This document shows, piece by piece, positions 15,197 to 49,856 of a DNA stretch of 64,000 bases (the stretch's first letter is position 1; every line of letters begins with the position of its first letter). The stretch comes from a virus (Duplodnaviria > Heunggongvirae > Uroviricota > Caudoviricetes), in the IMG/VR virus record IMGVR_UViG_3300015615_000629, positions 432,711 through 496,710 of that record; one strand, 5' to 3'. The notes under the pieces were generated by a model. It searched no databases. It was given only the letters and a program-made list of their open reading frames with translations, and was not told the DNA's origin. The position numbers and the translations under genes are program-made.

Positions 15197-16951
15197 ATGA
15201 ATAAAAAGAAAGTCGTAATAACTAAGAACACCAGGAAGTCAATAGCAGAACAAAATCATCAAAGGATTCAGGACGCACTAAAAGCAAAAAATACTCCTAA
15301 GAATTTTGTTGTTAAAAAAACAAACTTAGTCGGGGTTGGTGCAATGACACGACATAAAAAACTTCCCTTAACCGGAAATACAAAAAAGCCTGAAAAAGTT
15401 GATTTTGAGTCCCAACAAAGAGCTATTAACTGTGTCGAAATTGCTACTCCTAACTGGTTTCGTAATGACGGTCCTGTCGATGTTTCTATCATCGTTCCCA
15501 TGTTTCGAAGCCATGAGGTCATCAAAGACCAAATCAAATCTTGGCAATTAAATGATAATATCTCAAAAGAGATTATCTACGTAGACGATAATTGCCCGTT
15601 TAAATCGTTCCAGAGCGTTTTAGACACATGGGAGAAGCGTTTAGGGGACTTTGAGACACCTATCGGCAAAATAATTAAAAATAATCAAAATGGGGGCTTC
15701 GCCGAAGCCTGCAACGCAGGAGCTAAATACGCTTCTGGACAATATCTCGTCTTCCTTAATGCTGATTGCACCGTTACCGAAAATTGGCTACAACCCCTTT
15801 TAAATGCATTTAATTTAGGGGATGTGGGAATCGTAGGCAATATCCAGTTAAGACCTGATGGAGTTGTTTTATCTGCTGGTTCCGAATGGTTTCATGGTTA
15901 TTTTGCACATGTTGGCTTTGAAGTCTATAAAAGACAAAAATTGGTTAAGCCCCTTACGATGGAGAACTTGCCCAATGATCTTAAGGAGCTTAGAGAAGTC
16001 GAAATGACTACTGGCTGTTGTTTTGCCATTGAAAAGAAACTCTTTAATGCAGTTGGTGGTTTTGATACAAATTATAAAATTGGTTATTGGGAAGATACCG
16101 ATTTGAACATGAAGGTTCAAATGAGGGGCAAAAAAGTCTATGTCCAACCGGAATCAATTATTTATCATAAAATAGGACATTCTGGAGCTGGTGGACATGG
16201 CTATCTTACAAGAAACCGTGATAGATTTTACGAAAAGTGGGTTGACACCAAAGCCATCGAAATGTTTGTCAACAACAAAAACTCAAAAATAGACCAAACT
16301 AAAACAGTTGTTTATACTTCTATTTGTGGCGAATACGATGACCTTTCCGATAAACAAATCCAAGATGGAACCCAATTTATCGCTTTTATGGATAATGGAG
16401 TAGAATCCAAAATATGGGATATTTTACCAGTCCATAAAGAATTCAAGGACGCTAATCGTAATGCTAAGATACATAAGGTTTTAAGTCATAAATACTTCCC
16501 AGATAAAGAATATAGTTTATGGATTGATGGAAGTGTTGAACTACTTGCTCCATCATTTAAGATTATAGAGACTTTTATAAAAGATTATGATATTGTAGTT
16601 TTTAAACATCCACAACGTAAATGCATCTATGATGAAGCCGCCGTTTGCATAGAACGAAAATTAGATTTTAAAGATGTTATTGAAAAACAAATTAGAAGAT
16701 ATCAACACGAAAACTATCCTGCTAAAAATGGGCTAGTTGAAGCAACTATCCTTTTAAGAAGGCATAATTCAAGGGTGGCAGAATTTAATGAAATGTGGTG
16801 GAGAGAAATTTGTAAAGGCTCTAAAAGAGATCAAATAAGTTTCAATTATGTAGCAAGCAAAATGGGCGTTAAAATAGGCTACTTTCATGGAAGTTTAAGA
16901 AAGACGCAGAACGCTTTATTCCATAAAAGAGAACATAATAGAACGCGATGA
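15197..16951 (+). CDS. Two-domain glycosyltransferase (N-terminal GT2/GT-A plus a C-terminal second nucleotide-sugar-transferase-like domain)
   Basis: VSIIVPMF, YVDDNC and GGFAEACNAGAKYASGQYLVFLNADC form the GT-A motif set, with DxD read as NAD/DDN. The C-terminal 250 aa (TVVYTSICGEYDDL...SLWIDGSVEL) looks like a second transferase domain. Confidence 0.7.
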   Translation: MNKKKVVITKNTRKSIAEQNHQRIQDALKAKNTPKNFVVKKTNLVGVGAMTRHKKLPLTGNTKKPEKVDFESQQRAINCVEIATPNWFRNDGPVDVSIIVPMFRSHEVIKDQIKSWQLNDNISKEIIYVDDNCPFKSFQSVLDTWEKRLGDFETPIGKIIKNNQNGGFAEACNAGAKYASGQYLVFLNADCTVTENWLQPLLNAFNLGDVGIVGNIQLRPDGVVLSAGSEWFHGYFAHVGFEVYKRQKLVKPLTMENLPNDLKELREVEMTTGCCFAIEKKLFNAVGGFDTNYKIGYWEDTDLNMKVQMRGKKVYVQPESIIYHKIGHSGAGGHGYLTRNRDRFYEKWVDTKAIEMFVNNKNSKIDQTKTVVYTSICGEYDDLSDKQIQDGTQFIAFMDNGVESKIWDILPVHKEFKDANRNAKIHKVLSHKYFPDKEYSLWIDGSVELLAPSFKIIETFIKDYDIVVFKHPQRKCIYDEAAVCIERKLDFKDVIEKQIRRYQHENYPAKNGLVEATILLRRHNSRVAEFNEMWWREICKGSKRDQISFNYVASKMGVKIGYFHGSLRKTQNALFHKREHNRTR

Positions 16952-17883
16952 ACGTATTTTTTGGTCCGGTAAGAAATTATCCTTCTTGGAGTTGGGTCGG
17001 GGAAGATACAGTTAAAGAATTATCAAAATACATAGATATTCACACCTATCGAAACGAACATGTTCCCCCAAAATCCAAAGTAATTGTCGTAATAAAACAA
17101 CTTCCGAGCAAGAAATACTTTGATTTAGCAGATAGTTTTAAATCAAAAATAATCTACTGCCCAATTGATTATTTTCTAAGCGAAAAACACCTAAGAGGTT
17201 GTGGAGAACTCTTAAAAAGATGCTCTCTTGTCCTTTCTCATAGCGAACGCCTTTTGGAATATCTGAGAGATTATTGTAAAGCACAATATATCGACCATCA
17301 TGGGAAGTTTTTTCTAGAGCAACCTTCCTCTTATAAAGAAGAAGGATATGTGTTATGGGTCGGTGGACTACAATACACCCCATATTTGATAAATTGGCTA
17401 AACAGATTTCCTATAAAAGCACCAATTAAACTATTAACCGATTTAAGTAACGAAAGAGCAGAAGCCGCAGGAAATTCCATTTGTAAAAGATTCGACTTTA
17501 AACTTTCTATACAAAATGGTAAACTAAACGGCTACGAAGCAGAAGAATGGTCTGAATCTATTCAAACTAAGGCTTTAAAGGAAGCTAAAGCCGCAATTGA
17601 CATAAAAGGAACTGATTTTAACCAAGCACACAAACCACCTACAAAAGCACAAAAATATGTCTGCTCCGGCTTGCCTTTGGCAATGAACGAAGGCGAATCA
17701 GTAGAATATTTTAGAAATCGTGGATTTTATATCACTTCTCCAAGAAACCAAGCCGAATGGTTCTCTAGAGAATATTGGGAAAAAACTCAAGAAATAGGCA
17801 CAATACTAAAGCCCAAACTGGCGGTTGAGGCTATTGCACAAGAATTCTTAAAACATATTAATGGAATTTTACATGGGTCGTAA
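16948..17883 (+). CDS. Conserved hypothetical protein, paralog of 26456..27460
   Basis: Shares FGPVxNxPSWxWVG, KIIYxPxDYF, LTxLSN, SEAKAAIxIKxxDF, HKPPTKAQ and YWEKTQE blocks, in the same order, with the other copy. Confidence 0.5.
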   Translation: MNVFFGPVRNYPSWSWVGEDTVKELSKYIDIHTYRNEHVPPKSKVIVVIKQLPSKKYFDLADSFKSKIIYCPIDYFLSEKHLRGCGELLKRCSLVLSHSERLLEYLRDYCKAQYIDHHGKFFLEQPSSYKEEGYVLWVGGLQYTPYLINWLNRFPIKAPIKLLTDLSNERAEAAGNSICKRFDFKLSIQNGKLNGYEAEEWSESIQTKALKEAKAAIDIKGTDFNQAHKPPTKAQKYVCSGLPLAMNEGESVEYFRNRGFYITSPRNQAEWFSREYWEKTQEIGTILKPKLAVEAIAQEFLKHINGILHGS

Positions 17884-18547
17884 TAGAACAATTTGCACAA
17901 AAGCCTCCGTCATTATGCCGTGCTGTAATCGTTACGAAATTCTGGCAGAAAATCTAGAAATGGTTAGGGAACAAGCATATCCAGATATGGAAATGCTTGT
18001 CTGTGATGATAGCCATCCTTCTTATCTTAAAGAAAATCGCGGCGTATTGGAAAAGATACAGGCAATTCCAAGATTAAAATATTTCTATACGGCTAAATTT
18101 GATATAGAAGGAACTAAAACCTATGGTTTGGCAACCGCTAGAAATCATGGCGTAGTTAATGCTACAGGTTCTATTCTTGTCTTTTTGGACGAAAGAATCT
18201 GTCCTGCCAACAAAATGCTTGTTAGTATTTTTGCCGAAGAAATCCTTAAAGATGTAAAAAGGAAGATTTGGTTGTTCGGAGATAAAGGGGCACAAAAAAC
18301 CTCTTTTGTTGAGAATTGTTCGGCTATCTGGCGACAACATCTTATCGATGGAGGAATGTTCAACGAACAGATAAATAAGTACGGAGCCATGACTAGAGAA
18401 CTTTATACTAGATTCACCAGACAAGGCTTTGAATTTCTTTACTTGCCTGCCGCAAAAGCAACACCACTTGCTAAAAGCAGAGACAGAGAACGTAAAGAAA
18501 AAGAGATCGACGAATCAAGAGACTTTTTGAAGAGGATAGGTTACTAA
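17861..18547 (+). CDS. GT2-family (GT-A) glycosyltransferase
   Basis: ASVIMPCCNR, VCDDSH and YGLATARNHGVVNATGSILVFLDE. An alternative ATG lies at 17873. Confidence 0.6.
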   Translation: MEFYMGRNRTICTKASVIMPCCNRYEILAENLEMVREQAYPDMEMLVCDDSHPSYLKENRGVLEKIQAIPRLKYFYTAKFDIEGTKTYGLATARNHGVVNATGSILVFLDERICPANKMLVSIFAEEILKDVKRKIWLFGDKGAQKTSFVENCSAIWRQHLIDGGMFNEQINKYGAMTRELYTRFTRQGFEFLYLPAAKATPLAKSRDRERKEKEIDESRDFLKRIGY

Positions 18548-19233
18548 TGAATCATTTAGTTTTAGGACTCGGTGAAATCGGAACCGCTATGAAAACGGTT
18601 CTATCTGAAAAATATTCTTGTTCTGGAAGAGATATTCAAAGCGATTTAACCGGAAAATTCGACGTTTTACATGTCTGTTTCCCTTATTTCGTCAATTTCG
18701 TTGAAGTTGTCGAAATGTATAAAAAAGAATATGCGGCTGATAACGCTTTGGTAATCATCCATTCAACCGTTCCTATTGGGGTTTCTTCCCAATGTGCCGC
18801 CGTTCATTCACCAGTAAGAGGCATTCATCCGCATCTCGTTGATGGAATCAAGACATTCATTAAGTTCTTCGGTGGAGAAAGAGCCAAAGATGCCGCTAAA
18901 TTATTCCAAGACCTGGGAATTGGCACCATTACCACACCCAAATCCGAAACCACTGAAGCACTTAAATTGTGGGAAACTACCATTTACGCTTGGAATATTA
19001 TCTTGGAAAAAGAAATTTACCGTTATTGTCAAGAAAAAGAGATAGATTTTGACGTTGTTTACACAGATGCCAATAAGACCTATAATGAAGGTTATGAAGC
19101 ATTGGGACGACCAGAGTATAAGAAGTTTATTCTTAAGCATGTAGATGGCCCAATTGGCGGACATTGCTTAATTCCTAATGCTAAACTCTTAAGAAGCTGG
19201 GTGTGTGATACTATTTTAGAGAAAAACAAGTGA
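18547..19233 (+). CDS. Truncated UDP-glucose/GDP-mannose dehydrogenase-family protein (NAD-binding and central domains only)
   Basis: VLGLGEIGTAM Rossmann motif, the KLWETTIYAWNIILEKEIYRYCQEKEIDFDVV central helix, and the catalytic Cys region GGHCLIPN. It ends about 120 aa short of full-length enzymes. Confidence 0.55.
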   Translation: MNHLVLGLGEIGTAMKTVLSEKYSCSGRDIQSDLTGKFDVLHVCFPYFVNFVEVVEMYKKEYAADNALVIIHSTVPIGVSSQCAAVHSPVRGIHPHLVDGIKTFIKFFGGERAKDAAKLFQDLGIGTITTPKSETTEALKLWETTIYAWNIILEKEIYRYCQEKEIDFDVVYTDANKTYNEGYEALGRPEYKKFILKHVDGPIGGHCLIPNAKLLRSWVCDTILEKNK

Positions 19234-20042
19234 AAATATCATCTTATTTCATAGTTACCGAACCCGATAAAATGGGGTTCCCTTATCTGGAATGTGTCAA
19301 AGCCGCACTTTCTTTCTGTGATGAGGCTGTTGTAGTTTGCGGACGTAAAGAACAATCCAGCGAAGACAAACTCCTCAAACTAAGCAAAAATGTAAAAGTA
19401 ATCAACACTTACGGTTGGCCAGTTAAATGGAATTATGACCATATGCGGGATCATCTCCAAATAGGATTAAATAATTGTACAGGTGATTTTTGTCTCAAAA
19501 TTGATGCCGATTGTGTATTCAGAAACGAAAGAGCAAAAGACTATCGAGATTTATTTGAAGAAAACAAAGATATTCATAGAATCGATTTTGGCAGAGTTAA
19601 TTTCTTTTGCAAGAACATATTCTTCTTCAACAGAAAGAATCACGACATTTTCGCTCTAAACAAGACTCTTCTTAAGAAGGATGGAATTGATTACTTCATT
19701 GGAAATCGCAATCCCGACGGAAGTATCAACAGCACTCAGCCAGAGTTTAGCAAAGATATCACTACGATTCAAGTTTCTGATGGCGGTTTGTGGCCGATTA
19801 ATTATGACAATACATTTATGGATAAGGAACAAGTCATAGTAAAATGGATAAACTGGCATAAAGCAATTGGAAATGATGAGCAATCAAGAAATGATTGGGA
19901 AGCAGCCTATACGTCTTATATGGATAAAAAGAGAACTAAATCGAAGGCTGAAGCGAATTACCTCCATCCGGAAGTAATGACTGAAAGGATTAAGAATCTA
20001 AAACCCGAACATTGGGGATATAATAATTTTGGAGCGGTATGA
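19230..20042 (+). CDS. Hypothetical protein (possible GT-A-like fold)
   Basis: GTG start overlaps the upstream TGA (GTGA). An alternative ATG lies at 19272. No decisive motif. Confidence 0.35.
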   Translation: MKISSYFIVTEPDKMGFPYLECVKAALSFCDEAVVVCGRKEQSSEDKLLKLSKNVKVINTYGWPVKWNYDHMRDHLQIGLNNCTGDFCLKIDADCVFRNERAKDYRDLFEENKDIHRIDFGRVNFFCKNIFFFNRKNHDIFALNKTLLKKDGIDYFIGNRNPDGSINSTQPEFSKDITTIQVSDGGLWPINYDNTFMDKEQVIVKWINWHKAIGNDEQSRNDWEAAYTSYMDKKRTKSKAEANYLHPEVMTERIKNLKPEHWGYNNFGAV

Positions 20043-20560
20043 AAACTTTTGTAGTATTAGGATTTCCAAGAAGTGCTACTTCATTGATAGCCAAGGGATT
20101 ATTTAATGAAATTTATATGGGAGAAGACTTTCTGGAACCTAATGAATGGAACGTACACGGCTATTTTGAGAACAAAAAATTTCTCGATTTAAACAATAAA
20201 ATTCTAAAAGCAGCCGGTGGAGGTTGGAGAGACGTTCCTTCTGAAGCGGCAATTCTTGAAAAAGGTGCTAAATTCTCTAATGAAATTCAAGATTTAATCA
20301 AATCTGAGTCTGCTGGAAAAGACCATTGGGGCTGGAAAGAACCCAGAACCACTCTGACAATTAGACTTTATTTGCCTTATCTTGAAAATCCACATTTTAT
20401 TTTCTGTTTAAGAGACCCAAAAGAAGCCGCTTTGTCTTTAAATAAGTTTAAACATGTTCCCTTGGAAGAAGGGCTTAAATTAGCCGCTACTTACAACGAC
20501 CGTGCTCTTAATTTTTTAAGGGATTTCTCGAATGAAGAACATTTACATAGAAAACATTAG
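20039..20560 (+). CDS. Sulfotransferase-fold protein
   Basis: VVLGFPRSATSL is a PAPS 5'-phosphosulfate-binding loop (GxPRSGTT-like). FCLRDPKEAALS is a 3'-phosphate-binding RDP motif. Confidence 0.55.
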   Translation: MKTFVVLGFPRSATSLIAKGLFNEIYMGEDFLEPNEWNVHGYFENKKFLDLNNKILKAAGGGWRDVPSEAAILEKGAKFSNEIQDLIKSESAGKDHWGWKEPRTTLTIRLYLPYLENPHFIFCLRDPKEAALSLNKFKHVPLEEGLKLAATYNDRALNFLRDFSNEEHLHRKH

Positions 20561-21407
20561 TAAACAAACCCTTGGCGGTGGCTTTATCTTTCTTTCTAAC
20601 TTCAAAAAAGGTTCAGAAGGTAAAGCAGAGTTTGTCAAAAGTTGGCAAGAATCCCATTGCGTCTTCGTTGGAAGCGTTACAATGGCAAATAGAGACGAAT
20701 TAAGTACAGCCAAATCAAAAGGTAAAAGAATTCTACTTAGAATAGATAACATGCCTAAAGATAGCAGGAATCGCGGTACTGCATTCAGCCGTATGCGTGA
20801 TATTGCTAAAATGGCAGATGTTATTGTGTTTCAGAGCAAATGGGCCAAAGAATATGTAGGGACTTGGCTGGCAGACAAGCACGGCGTTGATTTAAGTAAA
20901 AGTAAAGTTATTTACAACGGCGTAGACCCTGAATTCTTCTATTGTAACAATAAGCCCACTTCTAGAGGGGAAACTTACCTGTTTTGCACTTACAATCGAG
21001 ATGAAAACAAACGTTTTCCCGAAGCGGCTTATGACTTTCATAAAAGACATGTCCAAGCCAGAAAAGAAGGCAGACAACCGCCTAAACTAAAGATAGTTGG
21101 CAACTTTTCTCCAGAAAATATGCAATATAACTTTGACTTTTTCGATGACGAAGTCATAGAACATATGGTTCCTATTGATAGCAGAAAACAAATGGGAAAT
21201 CTTTACCGTTCTTGTCAATATCTGTATTTCCCAGCCTTTGCAGATGCATCGCCTAACACCGTTTCAGAAGCACTAGCCTGTGGTTGTAAGATTTTACTGG
21301 CAAATGATATAGGTGGAACTAAAGAAGTAATCGAAGTATTTTCTAAAAGCACGATTACCATTCAAGAAATGGCCGACCAATACTTGGAGTTAGCCTTTGG
21401 AGATTAA
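20532..21407 (+). CDS. GT-B glycosyltransferase (GT4-like)
   Basis: C-terminal FPAFADASPNTVSEALACGCKILLANDIGG is a GT-B nucleotide-sugar binding region. Confidence 0.55.
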   Translation: MKNIYIENISKQTLGGGFIFLSNFKKGSEGKAEFVKSWQESHCVFVGSVTMANRDELSTAKSKGKRILLRIDNMPKDSRNRGTAFSRMRDIAKMADVIVFQSKWAKEYVGTWLADKHGVDLSKSKVIYNGVDPEFFYCNNKPTSRGETYLFCTYNRDENKRFPEAAYDFHKRHVQARKEGRQPPKLKIVGNFSPENMQYNFDFFDDEVIEHMVPIDSRKQMGNLYRSCQYLYFPAFADASPNTVSEALACGCKILLANDIGGTKEVIEVFSKSTITIQEMADQYLELAFGD

Positions 21408-22014
21408 ATCAAGTTGGGATGATGGAGCCAAAGAAGATATAAAACTGGCCGAATTACTCAAAAAATATAACATCAAATCCACTTTCTTTTGGACTGTGGC
21501 TATGAAACATTCCCTTCATATGGGTAAAGTTAAGGAATTCCTTGATGAGAAAGACCTAGAAACTATTGCCAAAGACTTTGAAATAGGTTCTCATGGCTGG
21601 AATCATTCCAGATTAACAGAAGTAGCAGACCACGACTTAAAGCGTGAAATAGTCCATTCAAGACAATATTGGCAGGATAAAGTCAAACAGCCTATCAATG
21701 AATTCTGTTATTCCAGGGGAAGAGCAAACGATAAAATAAAGAAGATGGTTAAAGATGCTGGATACACTTCTGCCCGCTCTACCGTAGTTGGTAATGTAAA
21801 GCAGTCTTTAGACCCATTTTGGATTGAAACTGCGGTCCATGTAGGAATTGATCGTCCCCAATATGATGGTATCCCTTGGCGGGAATTTGGAATAAAAATG
21901 TTTAAACAGGCTAAAGAAACTGATGGTGTTTTCCATTTCTTTGGGCATAGTTGGGAAATAGAGCAAAACAACCAGTGGAAAGCCCTTGAGGGCTTCTTAA
22001 AGGATATATCATGA
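21397..22014 (+). CDS. Polysaccharide deacetylase (NodB / CE4 family)
   Basis: SWDDG is CE4 motif 1 (TFDDG) and GSHGWNH is motif 2. A TTG start is needed to include motif 1. Confidence 0.55.
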   Translation: MEIKSSWDDGAKEDIKLAELLKKYNIKSTFFWTVAMKHSLHMGKVKEFLDEKDLETIAKDFEIGSHGWNHSRLTEVADHDLKREIVHSRQYWQDKVKQPINEFCYSRGRANDKIKKMVKDAGYTSARSTVVGNVKQSLDPFWIETAVHVGIDRPQYDGIPWREFGIKMFKQAKETDGVFHFFGHSWEIEQNNQWKALEGFLKDIS

Positions 22015-22535
22015 GCTTTTACAGAGAACAACTAGAGAAGTATCTATCTGAATTAAATATTAATGCAGAAACCGTCCTAGACGTTGGAGGAAGGCATAAA
22101 TCGGTGCAGGGAAGGACTAAATCTTGGAATGTAAAGAATTATTATGTTTTAGACCTTCCGGAGTACGATTTGGATGAAGAAATCAAGTTTGAACATAAGG
22201 GCGACCTTATCTTCTGTTTAGAAGTATTTGAATACCTAATTAATCCGCTTCAAGGGATGAGGAATATAGCAAGTTTGTTGAAAAAGGACGGCAAGGCTAT
22301 TATTAGTTTTCCTTTGGTCTACCCAGTTCACAATGAAGTTGAAAAGGATAGTTTAAGATTTACAGAAAGTGGAATTAGACGATTGGCGACCAAGGCTGGT
22401 TTGAACGTTTCAAAAGTTAATTACAGAAAGACGAAAAGTAATACATTGGTTCAGTATTTTCACGAAGATGGCATGAGAATGGCTAAAGGGGTCAATCATC
22501 ATGTAACTGGTTATATTTGCGAGATTAAGCACTAA
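22011..22535 (+). CDS. SAM-dependent methyltransferase (Methyltransf_11/23-like)
   Basis: VLDVGG motif I and DLIFCLEVFEYL motif II. ATGA coupling with the upstream stop. Confidence 0.45.
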   Translation: MSFYREQLEKYLSELNINAETVLDVGGRHKSVQGRTKSWNVKNYYVLDLPEYDLDEEIKFEHKGDLIFCLEVFEYLINPLQGMRNIASLLKKDGKAIISFPLVYPVHNEVEKDSLRFTESGIRRLATKAGLNVSKVNYRKTKSNTLVQYFHEDGMRMAKGVNHHVTGYICEIKH

Positions 22536-22542
22536 ATAAGAC

Positions 22543-22881
22543 ATGCTTACATTTGAAGATTGGCTAAAAGAACAACCTCAACATGAGGGATGGGTGAAAA
22601 ATTTAGCAATGACTGGAGCCTTAATGGGTTCTGCATTGGGCGGATACAAATATGCCAACACTAACAACAATCCCAGTAATATACAAAATCAATCTTATAC
22701 GAGTCCGGATGCCGCTGATTACCTTAGCGGTGTTTCTTTAGACGAGCCACAAACCAAACAATCTACAGGTCCATTTGCAGCGGCAAAGAGAAATCGAGAT
22801 GAATTAAGAAACAAAGCCAAGCAATTAAAATCTGCTGGTCGTAAAAGTGGGACATTTGTTCATGGGGAATTACAACCTTGA
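22543..22881 (+). CDS. Hypothetical protein
   Basis: ATG-initiated ORF at the end of the plus-strand block. Confidence 0.4.
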   Translation: MLTFEDWLKEQPQHEGWVKNLAMTGALMGSALGGYKYANTNNNPSNIQNQSYTSPDAADYLSGVSLDEPQTKQSTGPFAAAKRNRDELRNKAKQLKSAGRKSGTFVHGELQP

Positions 22882-22901: not shown

Positions 22902-23564
22902 TTAAAGTAACTGGTCGAATTCTGGCCGAAAATATTTACCAATATTTTGCCGTGTTTCTTTTTCCCACTCTTCTGTGGCAAATTTAGGATGTTCTTTATA
23001 ATTGGCGTAAAACACTTTAAATTTATTATCTCCTACCCACGCTTCATGAAGTAATTTGTCGAACCAATCATTTGGTTTATTTCTGGTAGAAAGGATTGTT
23101 ACGTTTTTGGCGTAAGAACATGCCGGTAACAATGCCTTCCAATGTGTATCCATATCTTGTGCGAAAGACATTTCATCTAAAAACAAATAATCCATCGAAC
23201 GACCGCAACAAGATATTGGCGTGCCGAAGTATATTGTAGATCCATTATCAAATTCTACTTGATGATGGTTTGTGCTAACATCGCCCCTTTTTAAAGTCCA
23301 GCGAGCCGCCATACACATTCTATCTGTTTTTGTAACAAACATTGCCTTGGTGTTTGGAGTGCTCAAACAATTCCAATATAACCAATTGCTCATTGTTGTG
23401 GTGAAGCCGCCTTGTCTGAATTTACTGCCAACTACAAACCTGTTTTTACTACATGTTTCAATCAATCTCTTCTGGAAATCGAACAATTCAAATGGAACTT
23501 CTTTAGGGTAGTCTAACGTTACCTCATTCTTGCAATACTCAAAAAATTCTTCGTAATCATTCAT
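22902..23564 (-). CDS. Terminase-large-subunit ATPase-domain paralog (ATPase only, no nuclease domain)
   Basis: FQKRLIETCSKNRFVVGSKFRQGGFTTT (Walker A) and DYLFLDEMSF (Walker B) align block-by-block with the bona fide terminase at 47885..49690 (YQRKVIKDYQKYRFNIISKFRQGGLTTV...FLIIDEAAF...THWK). Confidence 0.6.
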   Translation of the reverse strand: MNDYEEFFEYCKNEVTLDYPKEVPFELFDFQKRLIETCSKNRFVVGSKFRQGGFTTTMSNWLYWNCLSTPNTKAMFVTKTDRMCMAARWTLKRGDVSTNHHQVEFDNGSTIYFGTPISCCGRSMDYLFLDEMSFAQDMDTHWKALLPACSYAKNVTILSTRNKPNDWFDKLLHEAWVGDNKFKVFYANYKEHPKFATEEWEKETRQNIGKYFRPEFDQLL

Positions 23565-24543
23565 TTTTATTCTCCAACATAATTTTAACTAATTCTTCAA
23601 AACTTGTTTTAGGTTCCCAGCCTAGTTTCTCTTTTGCCTTTTTTGAACATCCACGTAAAAATGGCACTTCATTAGGCCGCATAAACTTTTCAGATTCAAC
23701 TACGAAATCCTTCCAATTCAAATCATAATGCCCAAATGCAACCTCAAGGAAACGCTCGACTGTATTAGTCTCCCCAGTAGCTATTACGTAATCATCGCCC
23801 TTGTCTTGTGCCAACATCAATCGCATTGCTTCCACATAATCCTTGGCATATCCCCAATCTCTAGATGCATTTAAATTGCCGAGTTCAAGTTTGGGGTAAT
23901 TAGCAGGATCTAAACAACAACGATATCCCTGAATATAATTAACTATCTTTTGCGTTACAAAATTAGCCCCTCTTCTGGGACTTTCGTGGTTAAACAGTAT
24001 TCCTACACTAGCATGTAATTTATATGTATCTCGATACATCTTCACCATTTGATGAGCCGCTACTTTGGCTACCGCATAAGGAGATACAGGCTCAAACGGA
24101 GTAAGTTCATACTGGTAGTCTACTATCTCGCGGGCGAGATTTGTCCACGCTTTACCGAATTGTTCCGAAGAACCAGCTTGGTAAAAGCGTGCTTCGGGAC
24201 AAATATTGCGATACGCCTCAAGTAGATTAACACAGCCGGTAGCAGTTACTTCAAAGGTATATTTGGGATTCTCATAAGAGATGCCTACATGGGACTGAGC
24301 AGCCAGATTATAAATTTCATCTGGCTTGTACTTAGACAACAAGGCACATAAACAATTAGAATCCGTTACGTCACCATGTTCAAGAGTAAGTTTGGGATGA
24401 TTAACTACACTACTTAATCTCCACAATCCACCCGATGTGCTATGACGACGAATTAAACCAATGACTTCATGACCATCAGCCAAAAGAGATTCGGCTAGAT
24501 AAGAGCCATCCTGACCATTAATCCCTGTGCAAAGGACTTTCAT
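23557..24543 (-). CDS. gmd: GDP-mannose 4,6-dehydratase
   Basis: CTGINGQDGSYLAESLLADGHEV, LAAQSHV, SPYAVAKVAAHQM and FNHESPRRG are canonical Gmd (SDR-extended) motifs. Confidence 0.85.
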   Translation of the reverse strand: MKVLCTGINGQDGSYLAESLLADGHEVIGLIRRHSTSGGLWRLSSVVNHPKLTLEHGDVTDSNCLCALLSKYKPDEIYNLAAQSHVGISYENPKYTFEVTATGCVNLLEAYRNICPEARFYQAGSSEQFGKAWTNLAREIVDYQYELTPFEPVSPYAVAKVAAHQMVKMYRDTYKLHASVGILFNHESPRRGANFVTQKIVNYIQGYRCCLDPANYPKLELGNLNASRDWGYAKDYVEAMRLMLAQDKGDDYVIATGETNTVERFLEVAFGHYDLNWKDFVVESEKFMRPNEVPFLRGCSKKAKEKLGWEPKTSFEELVKIMLENKNE

Positions 24544-24920
24544 TTAACCTCTTGTCGCCCATGTGTTAAAGTTTTAAAGACACCCTTAACGTTTTCCATC
24601 CATGTGTTTGCCCAAGGTCCACGAAATGTTAAAACATAAGTTCTGCCAACACTGTTTACCTTATGAAAAGTATCACGTTTGGTAATAATAGGGAAAAGAG
24701 AAGGCTTATGTTCCTCTACCTCTCCGTCAAAGTGTTGTTCAACCAATTTGCCTGAAAATATCCAACTCACACAGTTGAAAGCATGGCTGTGATATGCTTC
24801 ACGTGTGCCATTTTCAAACCTGAGCAAGGCTATGCTAAATAAGGACTTAATTTCAACCAACCAAAAGCCCCAAACATACGATTCAGGGCCACCATCTTTA
24901 CCACGAGATAGTATTTTCAT
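24540..24920 (-). CDS. Hypothetical protein (possible small cupin / sugar ketoisomerase-like)
   Basis: HSHAFNCVSWIFSG resembles a cupin HxH...G metal site. It is adjacent to gmd. Confidence 0.3.
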   Translation of the reverse strand: MKILSRGKDGGPESYVWGFWLVEIKSLFSIALLRFENGTREAYHSHAFNCVSWIFSGKLVEQHFDGEVEEHKPSLFPIITKRDTFHKVNSVGRTYVLTFRGPWANTWMENVKGVFKTLTHGRQEVK

Positions 24921-25104
24921 TTTTTGTTCTCCATTTTAGACATTCAAGACTATAATCAAAAGTGTGATAAATAATAGTTGCCAATATAAAAAATGGCATA
25001 TCTCTCCATCCTAAATTATTAAATGTCCCACCACAATACAAAACCGCTACTATTACCAAAAAATTAAGCAAAAGGCTTCTTAGCAGGTTAATGAAGAATA
25101 TCAT
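24898..25104 (-). CDS. Small 2-TM membrane protein, paralog of 28777..28974
   Basis: Shares (A/T)V(L)YCGG.(F/I)N and LE(C/Y)(L/I)KW(R/T)K blocks with the other copy. Confidence 0.4.
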   Translation of the reverse strand: MIFFINLLRSLLLNFLVIVAVLYCGGTFNNLGWRDMPFFILATIIYHTFDYSLECLKWRTKNENTISW

Positions 25105-26033
25105 AAACTCTCATAAACCTTTCTATAAGACGCCGCACGTTCCTTACTAGAATGATCTTGAACCGTTCTAAACGCCTGATCTCGAATGGAATTCAGTCTA
25201 TCCCAATTGGCCAACGATTCTGTAATTCTAGTCTTAATTAACTCGACATCCTCATTGCTTCCCCTAATTAACTCCATGTTTTTGCCATTATACAAATCAG
25301 GTACATGCCCTACAAGACGAGATAATACAGGAATTCCACATGACATCGCTTCCAAAATAGGCATTGTGCCAGACTCAAAATTATCCACAGAATTACATAC
25401 ATGCAAAGTGGATTGGTGATAGTATTTAAGCAAATCCTTTTCTAAAACATCCTGATGAAAATCAACACTTCCCGTCTTTAAGACGCTGTTCATATAACCA
25501 CTATCAGAAATCCTTCCGACCAAACATAATCTTAAACCCAATTCCTTACACGCCTGTGCTACTTCCAAGACTCCCTTCTTCCCCTCAATTCTACTAACAG
25601 TCATGTTGATGATGTTACTGTTGGATAAATATGGCACCTTCTTGAAAGCCTCTAAATCAATACCCAAAGGGATGATTTCAGCACTAGGCAGTTCACTCTT
25701 TTGATAAGAATTTACTACAAAAACACGAAGATACTCCTCCCAAAGTTCTTCCTTGAGATTATAGGGATTGTAATGAGTTAAAATCTTCTTTTTGTTATCT
25801 GCCCAAAGTTCTGGAAATAGACTTTTAATCTTCGAAGCAGATTTCCAATACTGAGCATCGACAATATCTGCCCATTTTAGACCCTCCCGAGCCGCTTTCA
25901 TTTGGGCATCATCGGGCTTCTTAGGGTGAAAATAAAGAAGTTTGAAGTCTAAATCTTTATTGTATTTCTGAATGTCCAATGCAAGGGTAGTAATGGCCGT
26001 CTTGGGAGCGGGAACAATTTGTAATATTTTCAT
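25101..26033 (-). CDS. GT4-family (GT-B) glycosyltransferase
   Basis: NFESGTMPILEAMSCGIPVLS is the E-X7-E region. Confidence 0.7.
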   Translation of the reverse strand: MKILQIVPAPKTAITTLALDIQKYNKDLDFKLLYFHPKKPDDAQMKAAREGLKWADIVDAQYWKSASKIKSLFPELWADNKKKILTHYNPYNLKEELWEEYLRVFVVNSYQKSELPSAEIIPLGIDLEAFKKVPYLSNSNIINMTVSRIEGKKGVLEVAQACKELGLRLCLVGRISDSGYMNSVLKTGSVDFHQDVLEKDLLKYYHQSTLHVCNSVDNFESGTMPILEAMSCGIPVLSRLVGHVPDLYNGKNMELIRGSNEDVELIKTRITESLANWDRLNSIRDQAFRTVQDHSSKERAASYRKVYESL

Positions 26034-26455: not shown

Positions 26456-27460
26456 ATGAAAAAAGTATTATTCGGCCCGGTTTCAAACGCACCTTCCTGG
26501 GAATGGGTAGGTAAAGATATTGCAGAATCCCTAAAAACACACTACGAGGTAGAATTTTTTACGGATAAAATCACCCCAGCAGATGCTATTTTTGTAATAA
26601 AAAAGCCTCTTAACGCCGGACAACTAAGAGACACCCACGGCTCTAAAATCATCTACATTCCAGTGGATTATTTCACCAGCCACGGACACATCTACTCACA
26701 CCGCAAATTCCTGCAAAGTTGCTCCATAATAGGCGTACATTGCGATAAACTTAAATCTCATTTAGGCAAATTCGCTCTTACCCATAACGTAGAACATTAC
26801 CTAAAATACCCAATAAACCCTACCCCTTACAAAGAAAATGGCTTTGTCCTTTGGATCGGCGTCTATGAAACCTTACCTTTCTTCATAAAATACCTTCAAA
26901 CCAATCCAATTGCAAATGATATCAAAATTCTTACCAATCTCTCCAATAAAAGTGCCGTAGGAAGATCGCACAAATTCCAAGCCCATTACAACATAGACCT
27001 GAATAATATACCATTCAAACTTTATGACTGGACGCCTGAATTACAAGCCCAAATGATGTCCGAAGCCAAAGCGGCTATCGAAATCAAAGATGGGGACTTT
27101 ATAGGCTCTCATAAACCACCTACTAAAGCCCAACAATTCATTGCAAATGGCATCCCATTAGCCTGTAAGGGTTATTACGCAACTAATTATTTTAAAAAAT
27201 ATGGTTTTTCAATTCCGGAACCTAACGACTATTGGCTTTCCAAAAAATATTGGGAGAAAACCCAAGAAATGGCCAAAGTCTTAAGGAGAGACCTGTCTTT
27301 AGAAAATGTAAGAAATAAATATATTCAATTTATAGAAGCAAACGAGCCGCAAATTAAGACTACAACGGTTATAACTAAGGATTCAAAGATTAAAAAGAAC
27401 GCACTTACAATGGAACAATGGAAAAGGATTCGGCGATCTTTGAAGCAACGTGGCGGTTAA
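26456..27460 (+). CDS. Conserved hypothetical protein, paralog of 16948..17883
   Basis: See the paralog for the shared blocks. ATG at 26456. Confidence 0.5.
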   Translation: MKKVLFGPVSNAPSWEWVGKDIAESLKTHYEVEFFTDKITPADAIFVIKKPLNAGQLRDTHGSKIIYIPVDYFTSHGHIYSHRKFLQSCSIIGVHCDKLKSHLGKFALTHNVEHYLKYPINPTPYKENGFVLWIGVYETLPFFIKYLQTNPIANDIKILTNLSNKSAVGRSHKFQAHYNIDLNNIPFKLYDWTPELQAQMMSEAKAAIEIKDGDFIGSHKPPTKAQQFIANGIPLACKGYYATNYFKKYGFSIPEPNDYWLSKKYWEKTQEMAKVLRRDLSLENVRNKYIQFIEANEPQIKTTTVITKDSKIKKNALTMEQWKRIRRSLKQRGG

Positions 27461-28250
27461 GCATATGCCCAGTTCGATAACCAGTTATTTTTCCTTCTAA
27501 TCTACAGCCCAACAACCCAAAATCTCCAATCATATCCAATACTTTATGTCTGGCAATTTCATTATCAGTCTTCATTTCTACCAAAAACTTATCCGTGTAA
27601 ATGATATAAGGGCTTTTCGAACAGTTTTTAGGCAATAATTTAAATTCCTTACGTTTCTTCTCCCACAATTTTCCTTCTTCGTCTAAAGGATAATGCAAAC
27701 AAGTCCTGCTCCAAGAGATTTCTTTCCTGTAAATCAATGGATCAATGGTAAAACCTGCAACTTGTGTCCCTAAAGCATTATCATAATCCATTACAGCAGA
27801 CATGGTTATACCGGAAACTGGAGAAGGCTCTACTTCAATATGTTTGTCATTTAAGTAAAACTTCTTTCTCTCCGAAATTCTTATTAAATTAACTGGTTTT
27901 TGAATTTCTAAAAAACCAGTTTTAGAAATTATTCGTGTAAAAATATCAGAACTAGCACAGAAGGGAACTTCCTCTTGATCTAATTCGATTAAAATATTAT
28001 CCAATCCAAGGCCGTATATGGCAGATAACAGGTGTTCAGTCATAATAACGCGAACACCATCTTTTTTAAGCGTTGTAGTCAAACCTACTTCTTCATGATC
28101 TATAAACTCCAACAAGGCTGGAATAAAGGTATCTTTTACCTTAAAAACAACGCCATTGTCATGAGGATGACAATGCATGGCTATTTTCTTCCCGCTTCTT
28201 AAGGCTCGTCCTTTAAGAGTAAACGAAGAAGATAGTGTGGTTTGTTTCAT
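27405..28250 (-). CDS. LpxC-family zinc deacetylase (UDP-3-O-acyl-GlcNAc deacetylase-like)
   Basis: MKQTTL...GRALRSGKKIAMHCHP...VRVIMTEHLLSAIYGLGLDNILIELDQEEVPF...HKVLDMIGDFGLLG...GYRTGHMLNRHV. This aligns along its whole length with E. coli LpxC, including the HKxLD and GH.LN motifs. Confidence 0.75.
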   Translation of the reverse strand: MKQTTLSSSFTLKGRALRSGKKIAMHCHPHDNGVVFKVKDTFIPALLEFIDHEEVGLTTTLKKDGVRVIMTEHLLSAIYGLGLDNILIELDQEEVPFCASSDIFTRIISKTGFLEIQKPVNLIRISERKKFYLNDKHIEVEPSPVSGITMSAVMDYDNALGTQVAGFTIDPLIYRKEISWSRTCLHYPLDEEGKLWEKKRKEFKLLPKNCSKSPYIIYTDKFLVEMKTDNEIARHKVLDMIGDFGLLGCRLEGKITGYRTGHMLNRHVASKIAESFSIVPL

Positions 28251-29639: not shown

Positions 29640-30635
29640 TTATATTTCCTTTACATAATTAATCACACCAAACATTTTACTTCCTTCACGTAATAGCTTC
29701 CTAATCATACATGTCCTCGACGGCAAATCCACCATGAAAGGTGAGAAAACATATCCATTGAGATAGTAATCAGATTTGGGCTTTGCTACAATTAATACCT
29801 TGTCTTTTGGCATATATGTCGAAGTGTATTCTAAAGAATCCGTCGAACCGCCAGATAAAACAAACTTATCCTCATGGAGTAGCACCTTGATTAAACAATC
29901 ATGATTGTCAGGATGCGTTAAAATACTAAAAGATAATTCTTCCTTATCAATATTGGTTTTTTCTAATATCTTCGCTTTTACAGAGTCAATCATGTTGCGA
30001 AGAGATGCATTACGAGTTATATGAAATTCTGTATCGAAAAGACTGTTCTCAGGACATGTATAATGATAAACCGTCCCACTCCAATTGATTAAATCTTCAA
30101 TCAAAAGCTTGTTTAACTCATCTATACCAGCGTCATATATGCCACAACAATAATTTTCACTCTCAAAAACCCATTTGTCACCTCTGTCCCTCTTGTAAAA
30201 AATAAGACCATTTTGATCAACAAGCGGAGTACAACCTAAAAGGTATGGACTGATTATTTGCGACAATTTAGATTTAATCCTGTCTATATCAAAATCCGTC
30301 TCAAGAAATTCGCTAAAACTCTTTTGATTCTCCAATATTATTGCCACACATTGCTCAGTCCAAATTCCACAGGATAAATCTGCTTTATCTTTCCACTTGC
30401 TATGAATCGCCTCTACTTCTCGCTCTGCCAAATATTTGTAATAATCTATCGGCCAGTAAAAAACAGATCTCTCATACTTCTCATTATTCATGAAATCAAA
30501 AATTACTTTTTGATTATACCTCCGATGCCCACCCTCCGTCTTAATTACCTTTAACTTGTCATCCCACTTCCTCAATGTCTGAGGTGAAACTTGCAATAAA
30601 GTTGCAACGTCCTTTAATGTCAATAATTGCTCCAT
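29640..30635 (-). CDS. MerR/excisionase-type HTH DNA-binding protein with a large C-terminal domain
   Basis: LTLKDVATLLQVSPQTLRKWDDKLKVIKTEGGHRRY is an HTH_17/MerR N-terminal signature. Confidence 0.55.
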   Translation of the reverse strand: MEQLLTLKDVATLLQVSPQTLRKWDDKLKVIKTEGGHRRYNQKVIFDFMNNEKYERSVFYWPIDYYKYLAEREVEAIHSKWKDKADLSCGIWTEQCVAIILENQKSFSEFLETDFDIDRIKSKLSQIISPYLLGCTPLVDQNGLIFYKRDRGDKWVFESENYCCGIYDAGIDELNKLLIEDLINWSGTVYHYTCPENSLFDTEFHITRNASLRNMIDSVKAKILEKTNIDKEELSFSILTHPDNHDCLIKVLLHEDKFVLSGGSTDSLEYTSTYMPKDKVLIVAKPKSDYYLNGYVFSPFMVDLPSRTCMIRKLLREGSKMFGVINYVKEI

Positions 30636-31571: not shown

Positions 31572-32417
31572 TTATTTCTCTATTTGAACAGGAGCCTTCT
31601 GAACAGGTACAGTAACCAACGGCATTATTCCACCACTTCCCACAAACTGTGGCGAAATTCCATTCCACTTTTGAACCATGCCATATTGAATCAACTCGGG
31701 CGTTATACTCTCAGCCAATATCTTGTTAGCCTTAGCCTGTGCCTCCGCTACCATCAATATCGACTGTGCTTCACCTTCCGCTTCCGCAATTTGCTGCCGT
31801 GCTTCAGCCTCTGATTGCTTCACCTTGTTCTCAGCCTTAATCGCCAACTGTGAAGCCTCAATTGTCGCATTAATAGAAGCTTCTACGGACTGATCCACAC
31901 GTAATTTGCCCACAATCGCTATCGTATCAAATACAAATCCATCCTTCTCTAACTTAATCTGTAAATCAGACTTGATCTGCTCCAACAAGTCCTGCCGCAT
32001 TACCCCAAAAATATCCATCACCTTCATCTTGCTGGCATGAATCGTAAACGCATCCCTCACCTGCTGCCGCAAATATTGATGAGATACGTACTCTATATCC
32101 TTACGTAAATCTACAAAAATATGAGCAACCTTATCTTCCCGAATCCGGTAACTAACACTCACATCACACTCAACACGAGTACCTTCTACCGAGTTAAATG
32201 TAATAGCCTCTTCCCCAACCCAATTTACCATATTTAAAAATGTAGGGAATTTATACACTTCAGTCGTGAAAGGATTATACCAAACCCGTCCCGTCTTTAA
32301 GGGGAAATCTTCAACACCCTTTTGATTGCCATATTGATTTACCTTGATACCTACATATCCAGGCTCAACCTTCGCACAACCAGCCAACACCAAAACACCA
32401 ATCAACAAATAACGCAT
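31572..32417 (-). CDS. SPFH/Band-7 (stomatin/prohibitin/HflC-like) lipoprotein
   Basis: Lipobox LVLAGC. VEPGYVGIKV...LKTGRVWYNPF...VECDVSVSYRI is an SPFH-domain N-terminal pattern. A C-terminal A/E/Q-rich coiled-coil follows. Confidence 0.65.
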   Translation of the reverse strand: MRYLLIGVLVLAGCAKVEPGYVGIKVNQYGNQKGVEDFPLKTGRVWYNPFTTEVYKFPTFLNMVNWVGEEAITFNSVEGTRVECDVSVSYRIREDKVAHIFVDLRKDIEYVSHQYLRQQVRDAFTIHASKMKVMDIFGVMRQDLLEQIKSDLQIKLEKDGFVFDTIAIVGKLRVDQSVEASINATIEASQLAIKAENKVKQSEAEARQQIAEAEGEAQSILMVAEAQAKANKILAESITPELIQYGMVQKWNGISPQFVGSGGIMPLVTVPVQKAPVQIEK

Positions 32418-34929: not shown

Positions 34930-36345
34930 CTAAATTGTTTTTATATATCTCAAATGCCCTGCATCCCAAATTCTATCATAGCCATTTAACTTCATAATCT
35001 CATATTCCGGCAAGTCGGTAGAATACCCCTCCATTTTAACCAGTTTATGCTTTTGAAACTTCATCCTGTTAAAAAATTGTTTGTTCTTTATATTGTAATA
35101 CCCATATCCAGGTGAAGTTATCCCATCTAATTTAAATCCAATCTTTTCATACAAACCACCAATAGAATACCTTCGATCAGCATAAGACATAATGCTCTTT
35201 ACATCAAAACACTTCAACAATTTGCTAGCACCTCCAACAATATTCACTCCAAGTCTAGAACAATATCTTTTTAATTCATATCCATATTGTTTGTTCGGTA
35301 CAAGAGTCATGCAGGCGACTAATTCTCCATCGTGATACAAACCATATGCTAACTTAGAGTTGTCACTGCCTTGTAAGTGATTGATATTTAGAAAATTATT
35401 CTTTTCTTCAAACGACAACTCCTTTGACACCGTCTGGCGAGCATAAATTACAGCATTTGTTCTTAAATAGCCAGACAAACGGGATTTAACAATATCTTGT
35501 TTGTTTTCCCATTCATTCTCATATATCTGAATCAGGCGTATACCTAATTTGTCTGCAATTTCGGCTTTTTGAAAATGTAGTTTTTTACCAACTACAGACT
35601 CGGTGTGCCAATACATTCCATGATATTCTACCCCAAGTTTTAGTTCTGGAAGATAAATATCTATTTCTTTATAGTCTAACAAACGCTGATTAGTCTGTAT
35701 TTCACCGGAATGTTTAGTTTTAATGAAATCAGCAATCTCACGTTCACCTCTAGATTGGGACATCTCCCCAACACAACCGGGGCAGGCCAAATCAGACTTA
35801 AGATGTGTATAAGCAGCCTGTTCAAAGTCGCCATGTTTTTTACAAGTTATCTTAATTTTATCATGGGCTTTTGTGTAGTCGCCGTGATAAGTGAATTTGC
35901 CGCCATGCGTTTCAGTTGCTAGTTTCTCGAATGTTTGAACATTATAAGCCACGCCACCTTTACATTTCGGACAACCATTTTTAATGTTTATATGATTTGT
36001 TGCCGATTGGATAAATTCTCCATGATTAGGACAAATTATGGTTACTTTAGTGTAGATTCCATTAACGAGATCAACTTTAGAATAGTCATAAAAATCTCCA
36101 TGAACTTCTCTGGCACGTTTGATAAAAGTTTCTTTGGTGTGCTTGCCTACACCTCTACCAGCACAATGAGGGCAGCCACATTTTAAATGTCGATATGGAT
36201 ACTGTTCTACATCACCATGCCTTGGGCATTTGTAGAGAATCTTGGTAACTTTGTTGACATAAACGGTTTCTGAATAATCGTATTTGTCGCCATGTTTGGC
36301 GGTGGCTTTAACAAAAAACTTGGCTGGACTGGCTTTGCTAGACAT
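34930..36345 (-). CDS. Composite homing-endonuclease-like protein: three tandem Cys/His zinc-ribbon modules, a DUF559/Vsr-like PD-(D/E)xK nuclease and a GNAT-like tail
   Basis: Three repeats of HGDKYDYS..V......CP.HG.F.Q.......GCP.C. GVEYHGMYWHTE...IRLIQIYENEW is a DUF559-type motif. The C-terminal VGGASKLL...LYEKIGFKL resembles acyltransferase motifs A/B. Confidence 0.5.
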   Translation of the reverse strand: MSSKASPAKFFVKATAKHGDKYDYSETVYVNKVTKILYKCPRHGDVEQYPYRHLKCGCPHCAGRGVGKHTKETFIKRAREVHGDFYDYSKVDLVNGIYTKVTIICPNHGEFIQSATNHINIKNGCPKCKGGVAYNVQTFEKLATETHGGKFTYHGDYTKAHDKIKITCKKHGDFEQAAYTHLKSDLACPGCVGEMSQSRGEREIADFIKTKHSGEIQTNQRLLDYKEIDIYLPELKLGVEYHGMYWHTESVVGKKLHFQKAEIADKLGIRLIQIYENEWENKQDIVKSRLSGYLRTNAVIYARQTVSKELSFEEKNNFLNINHLQGSDNSKLAYGLYHDGELVACMTLVPNKQYGYELKRYCSRLGVNIVGGASKLLKCFDVKSIMSYADRRYSIGGLYEKIGFKLDGITSPGYGYYNIKNKQFFNRMKFQKHKLVKMEGYSTDLPEYEIMKLNGYDRIWDAGHLRYIKTI

Positions 36346-49703: not shown

Positions 49704-49856
49704 ATGCCGCAGAAACGCAAATTTTACGATCCAATAGTTATTGCTGGTGTTTTAACTGTAAGTTTTACGATTTTAAAAGAAGTTGGAAAAGCCATTGTTA
49801 GCTTTGTAACATATACATTGCTCAAAAAGTGGTGGGAGAAAAGAGATAAAAAATGA
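49704..49856 (+). CDS. 50-aa membrane peptide
   Basis: ATG...TGA overlapping the start of the M28 peptidase gene (ATGA). Central TM helix IVIAGVLTVSFTIL. Confidence 0.3.
   Translation: MPQKRKFYDPIVIAGVLTVSFTILKEVGKAIVSFVTYTLLKKWWEKRDKK

Follow-up and report, generated by a model that had tools for sequence, protein, structure and literature searches.

Locus and genes

The stretch of DNA analysed here, called the window, comprises 64,000 nt of a Caudoviricetes virus (positions 432,711 to 496,710 of IMG/VR record IMGVR_UViG_3300015615_000629). On its minus strand, at 22902-23564, lies an open reading frame (ORF) for a protein of 220 amino acids (aa) that resembles the ATPase domain of the large subunit of phage terminase, TerL, and a full-length TerL is encoded in the same window at 47885-49690. 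No longer frame is possible at the site of the short gene. The exact 220-aa protein is on record from a 572-kb JGI contig, and the phage is therefore a huge phage.

The short gene is the 3'-most member of a minus-strand run whose upstream genes (23557-26033) encode a GT1 protein (26033 to 25101), proteins of 68 and 126 aa, and a GDP-mannose 4,6-dehydratase (GMD, 24543 to 23557). An earlier note, made from the DNA letters alone, had put the gene at the head of this sugar operon; it is the last gene, its ATG overlapping the GMD stop codon (ATGAATGA, 23564-23557), with a GGAG at 23575-23572, 7 nt upstream of the ATG. Read in this way, minus-strand positions 23557-23577 form a translation-coupling junction. 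The upstream genes provide a context of co-transcription; functional partnership between them and the 220-aa protein is hypothetical. The operon converges on a plus-strand glycan operon at 15197-22881, and the glycan island described in the earlier note is real, with identifiable genes for GT2/TOD1, GT2, sulfotransferase-like, GT1/4, polysaccharide deacetylase, methyltransferase, GMD, GT1 and LpxC proteins. Scans for promoters and terminators gave signals no higher than the shuffled expectation.

The minus-strand gene at 47885-49690 encodes a genuine T4-type large terminase of 601 aa, with an ATPase domain and an RNase H-like nuclease domain. It matches several PHROG TerL families (phrog_2, E 5e-42), its Pfam matches to Terminase_6N and Terminase_6C are weak, and relatives at 46% identity exist, among them the terminase of LR756511, an uncultured phage of 595 kb. 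The gene sits in a T4-like head module with portal (44227-46767), prohead protease (38854-39570) and major head protein (36442-37884) genes. The 220-aa ORF lies outside this packaging and head module, at the end of the sugar operon, 24 kb from terL and portal; its measured separation from terL, 24.3 kb, agrees with the roughly 25 kb given before.

The 220-aa protein is indeed an ATPase-only duplicate of the large terminase, as had been proposed. BLASTP aligns it to the window TerL at 31% identity over 216 aa (E 1e-39), covering TerL residues 74-289, and it matches PHROG_2, "terminase large subunit", at E 9e-18. The alignment is gapless through the motif blocks previously named: SKFRQGGFTT in the short protein pairs with SKFRQGGLTT in TerL, KTDR with KTDR, DEMSF with DEAAF, and THWK with THWK. 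The short protein scores 18.9 bits against the Pfam model Terminase_6N, whose cut-off is 22 bits, and the genuine window TerL scores lower still, at 16.7 bits. The chain ends at the hinge between ATPase and nuclease; the RNase H-like nuclease domain (PF17289, Terminase_6C) is absent, and so is the N-terminal extension of about 60 aa found in TerL. When the C-terminal, nuclease half of TerL was used as a tblastn query against the 64-kb window, TerL itself was the only match, in keeping with the claim that the nuclease domain is missing entirely. Besides the 220-aa ORF and TerL, the window contains no other TerL-like gene and no copy of the C-terminal domain, ALTC, described below. A split terminase, in which the short gene would be the N-terminal half of a divided terL, was considered and rejected: no nuclease-domain match adjoins the short genes, and full TerLs co-exist with them.

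A family of nuclease-less TerL paralogues

A word-indexed search with the 220-aa protein found only four relatives, proteins of 278-302 aa at 31-48% identity that all end just past the ATPase domain. An exhaustive profile search collected 11,619 proteins at E<=1e-3, the best 150 representatives of which were classified by architecture. About 85 of these are short, ATPase-only forms of 215-350 aa; about 45, of 460-630 aa, carry the ATPase domain, a linker and a conserved C-terminal domain of about 80 aa, here designated ALTC; and about 18 are true TerLs with both ATPase and nuclease. Contig-edge fragments are possible among the short forms, and the lid glutamate is reached in 144 of 150. A second indexed search added dozens of proteins, 245-330 aa in length and either unnamed or labelled "hypothetical", several of them on contigs of 200-430 kb.

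These searches place the 220-aa gene in a large family, as yet without a name, of TerL paralogues that lack the nuclease and occur in T4-like huge phages. It bears the marks of that family, a Walker A motif of the form KFRQGGF[TS]T and a frame that ends at the ...EHP...LGEK.F.QE... lid helix. A paralogue and a full TerL are found in one genome not only in the window but also at loci L012, L047, L057 and L084 and on the contig shared by L017 and L107. Among 50,697 deposited phage genomes, the 220-aa protein matches 1,973 records at one place each, and that place is their TerL; the paralogue family is therefore, so far, purely metagenomic. A comparative review of jumbo phages treats TerL as a universal single protein and mentions no such paralogues (PMC7824862).

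The closest relative, P0002 (L001:10001-10897, 48% identity), carries an 85-aa N-terminal extension that starts MDRRNFIKFGSILGLFPFS. This N-terminus looks like a twin-arginine export signal, which would be odd for a cytoplasmic ATPase, and an internal start is possible. The window and L001 share a gene for a MerR/HTH_17-domain protein of about 335 aa a few kilobases upstream of the paralogue (29640-30635, minus strand, in the window; L001:7028-8056; 52% identity), the sole local synteny between these two closest relatives.

Paralogues of the ALTC type, exemplified by L006:7024-8556, L009:9950-11638 and L017:385-1404, consist of the ATPase domain, a charged linker and the C-terminal domain of about 80 aa, whose motif is ...G.FPDDL.L.F..G..CVN..PT.IKE.D... 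and which has no Pfam match. Around them lies a conserved module (L009:5336-15624; also L006, L014, L015 and L028) made up of a Volactin-like actin homologue, a 159-aa gene, the paralogue, a 163-aa protein and an unannotated protein of 900-1190 aa. The actin homologue (L009:8401-9411) matches PF25216 at E 7e-74, is 73-89% identical between loci and is split by an intein in L006; the 163-aa protein is 75-87% identical between loci. An actin-like gene was also looked for beside the short form, and was found only beside ALTC-type paralogues.

Fold and ATPase site

BLASTP, PHROG, profile, AF2 and Foldseek results all point to a free-standing TerL-type ATPase domain, N-subdomain I plus lid, across the whole of 22902-23564. 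A profile of the 220-aa protein and its relatives matches T4 gp17 (PDB 3EZK, 2O0H, 3CPE) at E 5e-43, with no comparable match elsewhere. The AF2 model, built from a 66-sequence alignment, has a mean pLDDT of 94.1 and a pTM of 0.90. Its best Foldseek matches are gp17 structures (3cpe, 2o0h and 3ezk; query-normalised TM 0.81-0.85). Next come the ATPase domains of three other terminases, those of P74-26, D6E and Sf6; SF2 helicase cores also appear, at lower scores. Its relatives have about 20 further residues at the N-terminus and, after KTDR, a 13-residue "LPxWL" loop; model confidence is lowest, with pLDDT about 70, where these segments are missing from the 220-aa protein.

Residue equivalences to T4 gp17 were read from the HMM alignment; all positions given here are on the minus strand. 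Q31 (23472-23474) corresponds to the adenine-binding glutamine, T4 Q143, and is Gln in 133 of 150 short paralogues and in all 84 TerLs. The Walker A motif, K48-F-R50-Q-G-G53-F54-T55-T56 (23397-23423), is deviant: motif alignments equate R50 with T4 R162, Q51 with Q163, G53 with G165, F54 with K166 and T55 with T167. The Walker A "toggle" arginine at motif position 3, T4 R162, is therefore kept as R50, while the canonical lysine is found in neither window protein, the residue being Phe in the 220-aa protein and Leu in TerL, at motif position 7. Both window proteins instead have Lys at motif position 1 (K48 in the short protein). This arrangement is that of lambda, whose gpA motif KSA-R79-VGYS has been tabulated beside T4 LS-R162-QLGKT in a study that also cites Mitchell & Rao 2004 on deviant terminase Walker A motifs (PMC6379665). 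Position 7 is Phe in 167 of 199 nuclease-less proteins against 2 of 84 nuclease-bearing TerLs; on these counts, Phe at that position is a mark of the nuclease-less proteins.

Further along the chain, the KTDR block (K79-R82, 23319-23330) is conserved in the huge-phage TerL clade and in the paralogues. Walker B, Y126-L-F-L-D130, and the catalytic glutamate E131 (23172-23189) correspond to T4 D255 and E256, and in the coupling, or C, motif S159-T160-R-N162 (23079-23090), T160 corresponds to T4 T285. E215 (22920-22922), in the ...F.QE... block of the C-terminal lid helix, is Glu in 84 of 84 TerLs and 136 of 150 short paralogues. The chain then ends within the lid helix (...YFRPE215FDQLL), at the ATPase/nuclease boundary. 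Replacement of the Walker A Lys or Thr, or of the Walker B Glu, had been named beforehand as the sign of a pseudogene; these residues are intact, as is the Walker B Asp-Glu pair. Alignment and model together show an intact, foldable T4-type terminase ATPase domain with a complete cis-acting site and lid.

Two paralogues elsewhere, L012:8865-9746 and L017:385-1404, have Glu for the Walker B Asp (MEE and LEE). A T4 D255E/E256D double mutant was reportedly the form used for crystallography, and these members may be catalytically weak.

Arginine-finger position

The most informative result is that obtained for the arginine finger, which the earlier note had singled out for inspection together with the catalytic glutamate. 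E131 and the cis-acting R50 are kept, but at the position of the trans-acting finger the 220-aa protein has a cysteine, Cys120 (23205-23207, minus strand). The column was identified by aligning the profile to two chains of the P74-26 ATPase, wild type and R139A, the two alignments differing at that column alone, and by the gapless alignment just before Walker B, where the 220-aa protein reads TPISCCGRSM, the window TerL TPEAARGKSM and T4 SPDAVRGNSF. The finger arginine is thus present in the "AVRGN" of T4 and the "AARGK" of the window TerL. R139 is the trans-acting finger of P74-26, critical for hydrolysis and for ring contacts (PMC5389665), and T4 too has an arginine at the equivalent position (PMC5727402).

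To place this substitution in its family context, 289 family members were aligned to a single HMM and grouped by domain architecture. Of the 84 nuclease-bearing TerLs, 83 have Arg at the finger position. In the 199 short and ALTC-type paralogues that position is Arg in 91, Cys in 67 and some other residue in 41. The cis-acting residues K48, R50, G53, D130, E131, S159 and E215 are 92-100% conserved in the same paralogues, and 79% of paralogues retain all six core cis-acting residues, irrespective of the state of the finger. The family keeps its cis ATPase machinery, while about half of its members, the 220-aa protein included, have lost the finger arginine.

This pattern bears on the main rival to a role in packaging, namely that the domain has been co-opted. 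A free ATPase domain might serve as a motor or switch in some other nucleic-acid transaction, such as DNA positioning or segregation, recombination or ejection, and might act alone or with new partners, which would account for a ring-specific trans finger having become dispensable. We consider co-option a possibility of some weight, though an unlikely one. The finger arginine is gone from more than half of the paralogues while the cis-acting residues are kept, the genomic locations are dispersed, the sister ALTC architecture lies in a conserved module with a Volactin-type actin homologue and proteins of 163 and about 1000 aa, and SF2 helicase cores are among the lower-scoring Foldseek matches. 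However, no new partner is conserved beside the short form, the window protein has gained no extra domain and retains a lid and a coupling motif of the kind typical of a packaging cycle, and several copies are still in tandem with terL or in head modules.

Origin and genomic context

At three loci, L012, L047 and L057, an ATPase-only copy lies directly upstream of a full terL. L012 is syntenic with the packaging module of the window, and in L047 a gap of 1 nt separates the copy from terL, which is followed by the portal gene. Identity of the copy to its own TerL is 48% in L012, 40% in L047 and 76% in L057, as compared with 31% for the window pair. In a neighbor-joining tree, huge-phage TerLs and almost all paralogues form one clade with 100% support, within which nodes have 2-43% support. 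Pairwise identities point to recurrent duplication, and the interior of the tree gives no resolution between single and multiple origins. We read the pattern as one of repeated tandem duplication of the 5' half of terL, after which the copies diverged and moved to other places in the genome.

The pair at L057:2-2565 is very young: its TerL starts at the stop codon of the ATPase-only copy, which still has a TerL-type Walker A motif (KFRQAGMTT).

For the L057 pair, dN is 0.13 and dS 0.55, a ratio of 0.25; between the window ORF and P0002, dN is 0.42 and dS is saturated. In every case that permits its measurement, dN/dS falls well short of 1, as expected for a domain under selection. A decaying duplicate, a functionless remnant of terL duplication, was among the possibilities raised in the earlier note, and we regard it as extremely improbable. 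The protein is shorter than its relatives, lacking their N-terminal 20 or so residues and the "LPxWL" loop, it has lost the finger arginine, and its Pfam score is below threshold. Nevertheless, the frame is unbroken and has both a Shine-Dalgarno sequence and a coupled start, no cis-acting catalytic residue is missing, and the AF2 model reaches pLDDT 94. P0002, only 48% identical, stops at the same residue with the same motifs, which are kept across a family whose members are 30-50% identical. Nor is there any nuclease remnant downstream, and dN is much below dS. On the intact frame and motifs, the model confidence, the absence of a nuclease remnant and dN far below dS, a pseudogene was rejected.

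Neighborhoods were compared across about 24 non-redundant loci. Apart from the three tandem loci, the paralogue lies beside a head module of Gp23, S77-protease and portal genes in L045 and L049, and in L084 and on the L017/L107 contig its distance from terL is 5-15 kb. Genes for glycosyl-, sulfo- or methyltransferases are near it in the window, L001, L003, L004 and L046. The remaining loci have unrelated neighbors, among them tRNA synthetases, a deaminase, homing endonucleases and a kinase. Enrichment near packaging and head genes is modest, and would be expected in any case from birth by tandem duplication.

The location at the end of a sugar operon, which the earlier note had stressed, might suggest service to the glycan pathway, for instance by powering a glycosylation machine or acting as its chaperone. 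The start codon is translationally coupled to the GDP-mannose 4,6-dehydratase gene, and glycosyltransferase, sulfotransferase or methyltransferase genes lie within 5 kb of the paralogue in L001, L003, L004 and L046. But glycan genes occur near the paralogue at only about 5 of the 24 loci, P0194 and P0168 adjoin terL or a head module instead, and the 220-aa protein has neither a membrane segment nor a sugar-binding domain. A Pfam census of 125 neighbors at 14 loci found as glycan-type members only Glycos_transf_2 (2), GT_PLOD (1) and Sulfotransfer_4 (1), all traceable to the already counted L001, L003 and L004. Conserved linkage to glycan genes was accordingly rejected, the implied tie to the sugar operon does not extend to relatives, and a glycan role is very unlikely.

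Neighboring genes

Several other genes of the window and of related loci deserve record. Within the glycan island, beside two methyltransferase genes, lies a gene for an LpxC homologue (27405-28250, minus strand; UDP-3-O-acyl-GlcNAc deacetylase, Pfam E 1e-49). Between this island and the head module is a gene for a protein of the SPFH/Band 7 family (31572-32417, minus strand; Pfam E 2e-20). Directly beside the major head protein gene is a gene for a 471-aa HNH/homing endonuclease (34930-36345, minus strand; phrog_559, E 4e-108), and this stretch is the G+C maximum of the window (0.45). Divergent from terL, a plus-strand gene at 49853-51028 encodes a 391-aa protein with a signal-like N-terminus and a His-rich tail (HSYHKHEHEHGHNHSHEEK), a counterpart of which, at 39% identity, also lies beside terL in L012. 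Genes for T4-type portal proteins in related huge phages carry inteins (Intein_splicing, LAGLIDADG_3) at L045:20465-20903 and L047:10592-14371.

Comparison with known systems

With the ATPase domain of T4 gp17 (PF03237, Terminase_6N) the 220-aa protein shares the fold, the domain end, the adenine-binding Gln, the Walker A Arg and Gln, the Walker B Asp, the catalytic Glu, the coupling motif and the lid. Unlike gp17, it has no nuclease domain and no N-terminal extension, carries its Walker A Lys at position 1, as lambda does, with Phe at the canonical Lys position, has Cys for the finger Arg of "AVRGN", and is encoded away from portal and head genes. It therefore fails three defining features of TerL: the nuclease domain, the finger arginine and the location in a packaging module.

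Packaging ATPases of the phi29 gp16 and phi28 gp11 type also lack a nuclease; they form rings with a trans-acting arginine and belong to an FtsK/HerA-like branch. They resemble the 220-aa protein in being ATPases naturally without a nuclease domain, but each is the sole motor of its phage, whereas the 220-aa protein is a paralogue beside a full TerL. The Foldseek match to phi28 gp11 is at E 1.8e-4 and TM 0.51, and the TerLs of T4, P74-26, D6E and Sf6 rank first, a ranking by which identity with the phi29 gp16 type was ruled out.

In domain content, the protein equals the isolated TerL ATPase domains of P74-26 and D6E made in the laboratory. These constructs are folded and pentameric, and their ATP hydrolysis is faster than that of full-length TerL (PMC5727402). 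They keep the essential R139 (P74-26) or R158 (D6E), while the 220-aa protein has Cys at the R139 position.

The closest published analogue is T4 vs.8 (NP_049732), itself uncharacterised. It is described as a terminase-like protein with an ATPase domain only, which fits the EcAvs2 sensor and proves toxic in combination with it, and its function is left open (PMC13601566). Like the window protein, vs.8 is a free-standing terminase-like ATPase (219 as against 220 aa) whose gene lies well away from the packaging genes of a T4-like phage with a full TerL of its own; unlike the window family, it has a canonical P-loop, GGRQSGKS. Comparison of the two proteins gave a best BLASTP E of 0.25 and an hhalign probability of 1.7%, and orthology was rejected for want of significant similarity by either method. 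Since the paralogues of the window family resemble the TerLs of their own clade far more closely (30-48% identity), vs.8 and the window family are independent duplications.

The 2026 report on vs.8 (PMC13601566) prompted a further alternative, a gene of phage-host or phage-phage conflict: a mimic of the TerL ATPase that soaks up or misleads host sensors (Avs1-3, Upx), or that poisons the terminase of competing phages. The sporadic, accessory-like distribution of the paralogues, their rapid divergence and their presence in variable islands near homing endonuclease and methyltransferase genes would suit such a gene. On the other hand, vs.8 activates its sensor and does no blocking, and its authors leave the function open (PMC13601566). 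The catalytic Glu, the coupling motif and the lid are conserved, though a pure decoy would not need them, and no defence or anti-defence genes are consistently adjacent. We hold a conflict role to be improbable.

Proposed role and implications

The most likely role for the 220-aa protein, put forward tentatively and at rather less than an even chance, is that of an accessory partner or modulator of the packaging motor that depends on ATP, does not cut DNA and has no finger of its own. An arginine finger acts only between the subunits of a ring. The protein would still bind and hydrolyse ATP, hydrolysis proceeding when a ring neighbor supplies the finger. It would engage the targets of a TerL ATPase, DNA and other TerL-type subunits, and would neither cut DNA nor activate its neighbor in trans. 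Such a subunit might co-assemble with the TerL ring, or cap it, and so tune packaging, perhaps by damping the firing of the motor or by keeping nuclease copies out of the ring during a packaging run of more than 500 kb. The lack of a nuclease and of the finger arginine, together with an intact cis-acting site, is what makes an accessory packaging subunit the most likely reading, and the behavior of isolated TerL ATPase domains, which form pentamers more active than full-length TerL (D6E, PMC5727402), is consistent with it. The copies in tandem with terL or in or beside head modules, and the co-existence of paralogue and full TerL in one genome, also count in its favor. Because close relatives do without the paralogue, the protein would not be a core component of the motor.

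Several observations weigh against a packaging role. The paralogue is sporadic, occurring within flanks of about 5 kb at only 2 of 80 terL loci of the clade, and LR756511, the 595-kb relative and the closest GenBank genome, has a single TerL-like place and no paralogue. Most copies are far from terL in mixed contexts of glycan genes, methyltransferases, tRNA synthetases and homing endonucleases, and proximity to terL in some genomes may merely reflect birth by tandem duplication. In the window itself, translational coupling ties the gene to that of a sugar-nucleotide enzyme and to no packaging gene. Finally, a trans finger could reside at the other proposed position, equivalent to D6E R158, where both window proteins have Lys.

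A bolder form of the packaging proposal, which we think something of a long shot, is that the motor of huge phages is hetero-oligomeric, with nuclease-less and often finger-less paralogues co-assembling with full TerL. The paralogues would then set the number of ring subunits able to fire and to cut, an adaptation that would let the motor move several hundred kilobases of DNA without cutting too soon. Were this true, the paralogue family would represent a second class of terminase subunit, one that has gone unrecognised until now.

We consider the finding moderately interesting, its value lying more in the family that it exposes, and in the pattern of finger loss, than in the single gene. The earlier question of whether the protein is a dominant-negative or has been co-opted takes a more specific form in light of that pattern. 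The usual view is of a single terminase protein per phage, ATPase and nuclease in one, and TerL serves as a single-copy marker for phage phylogeny and for assigning huge phages to clades; with a family of at least about 200 representatives at 50% identity, marker searches based on TerL can pick up copies that are not orthologous. Avs1-3 and Upx sensors target the ATPase domain of TerL, so a widespread family of TerL-ATPase look-alikes is directly relevant to conflict between phage and host. Conserved cis-acting residues set against an often replaced trans-acting finger amount to a natural experiment on coordination between the subunits of ring ATPases.

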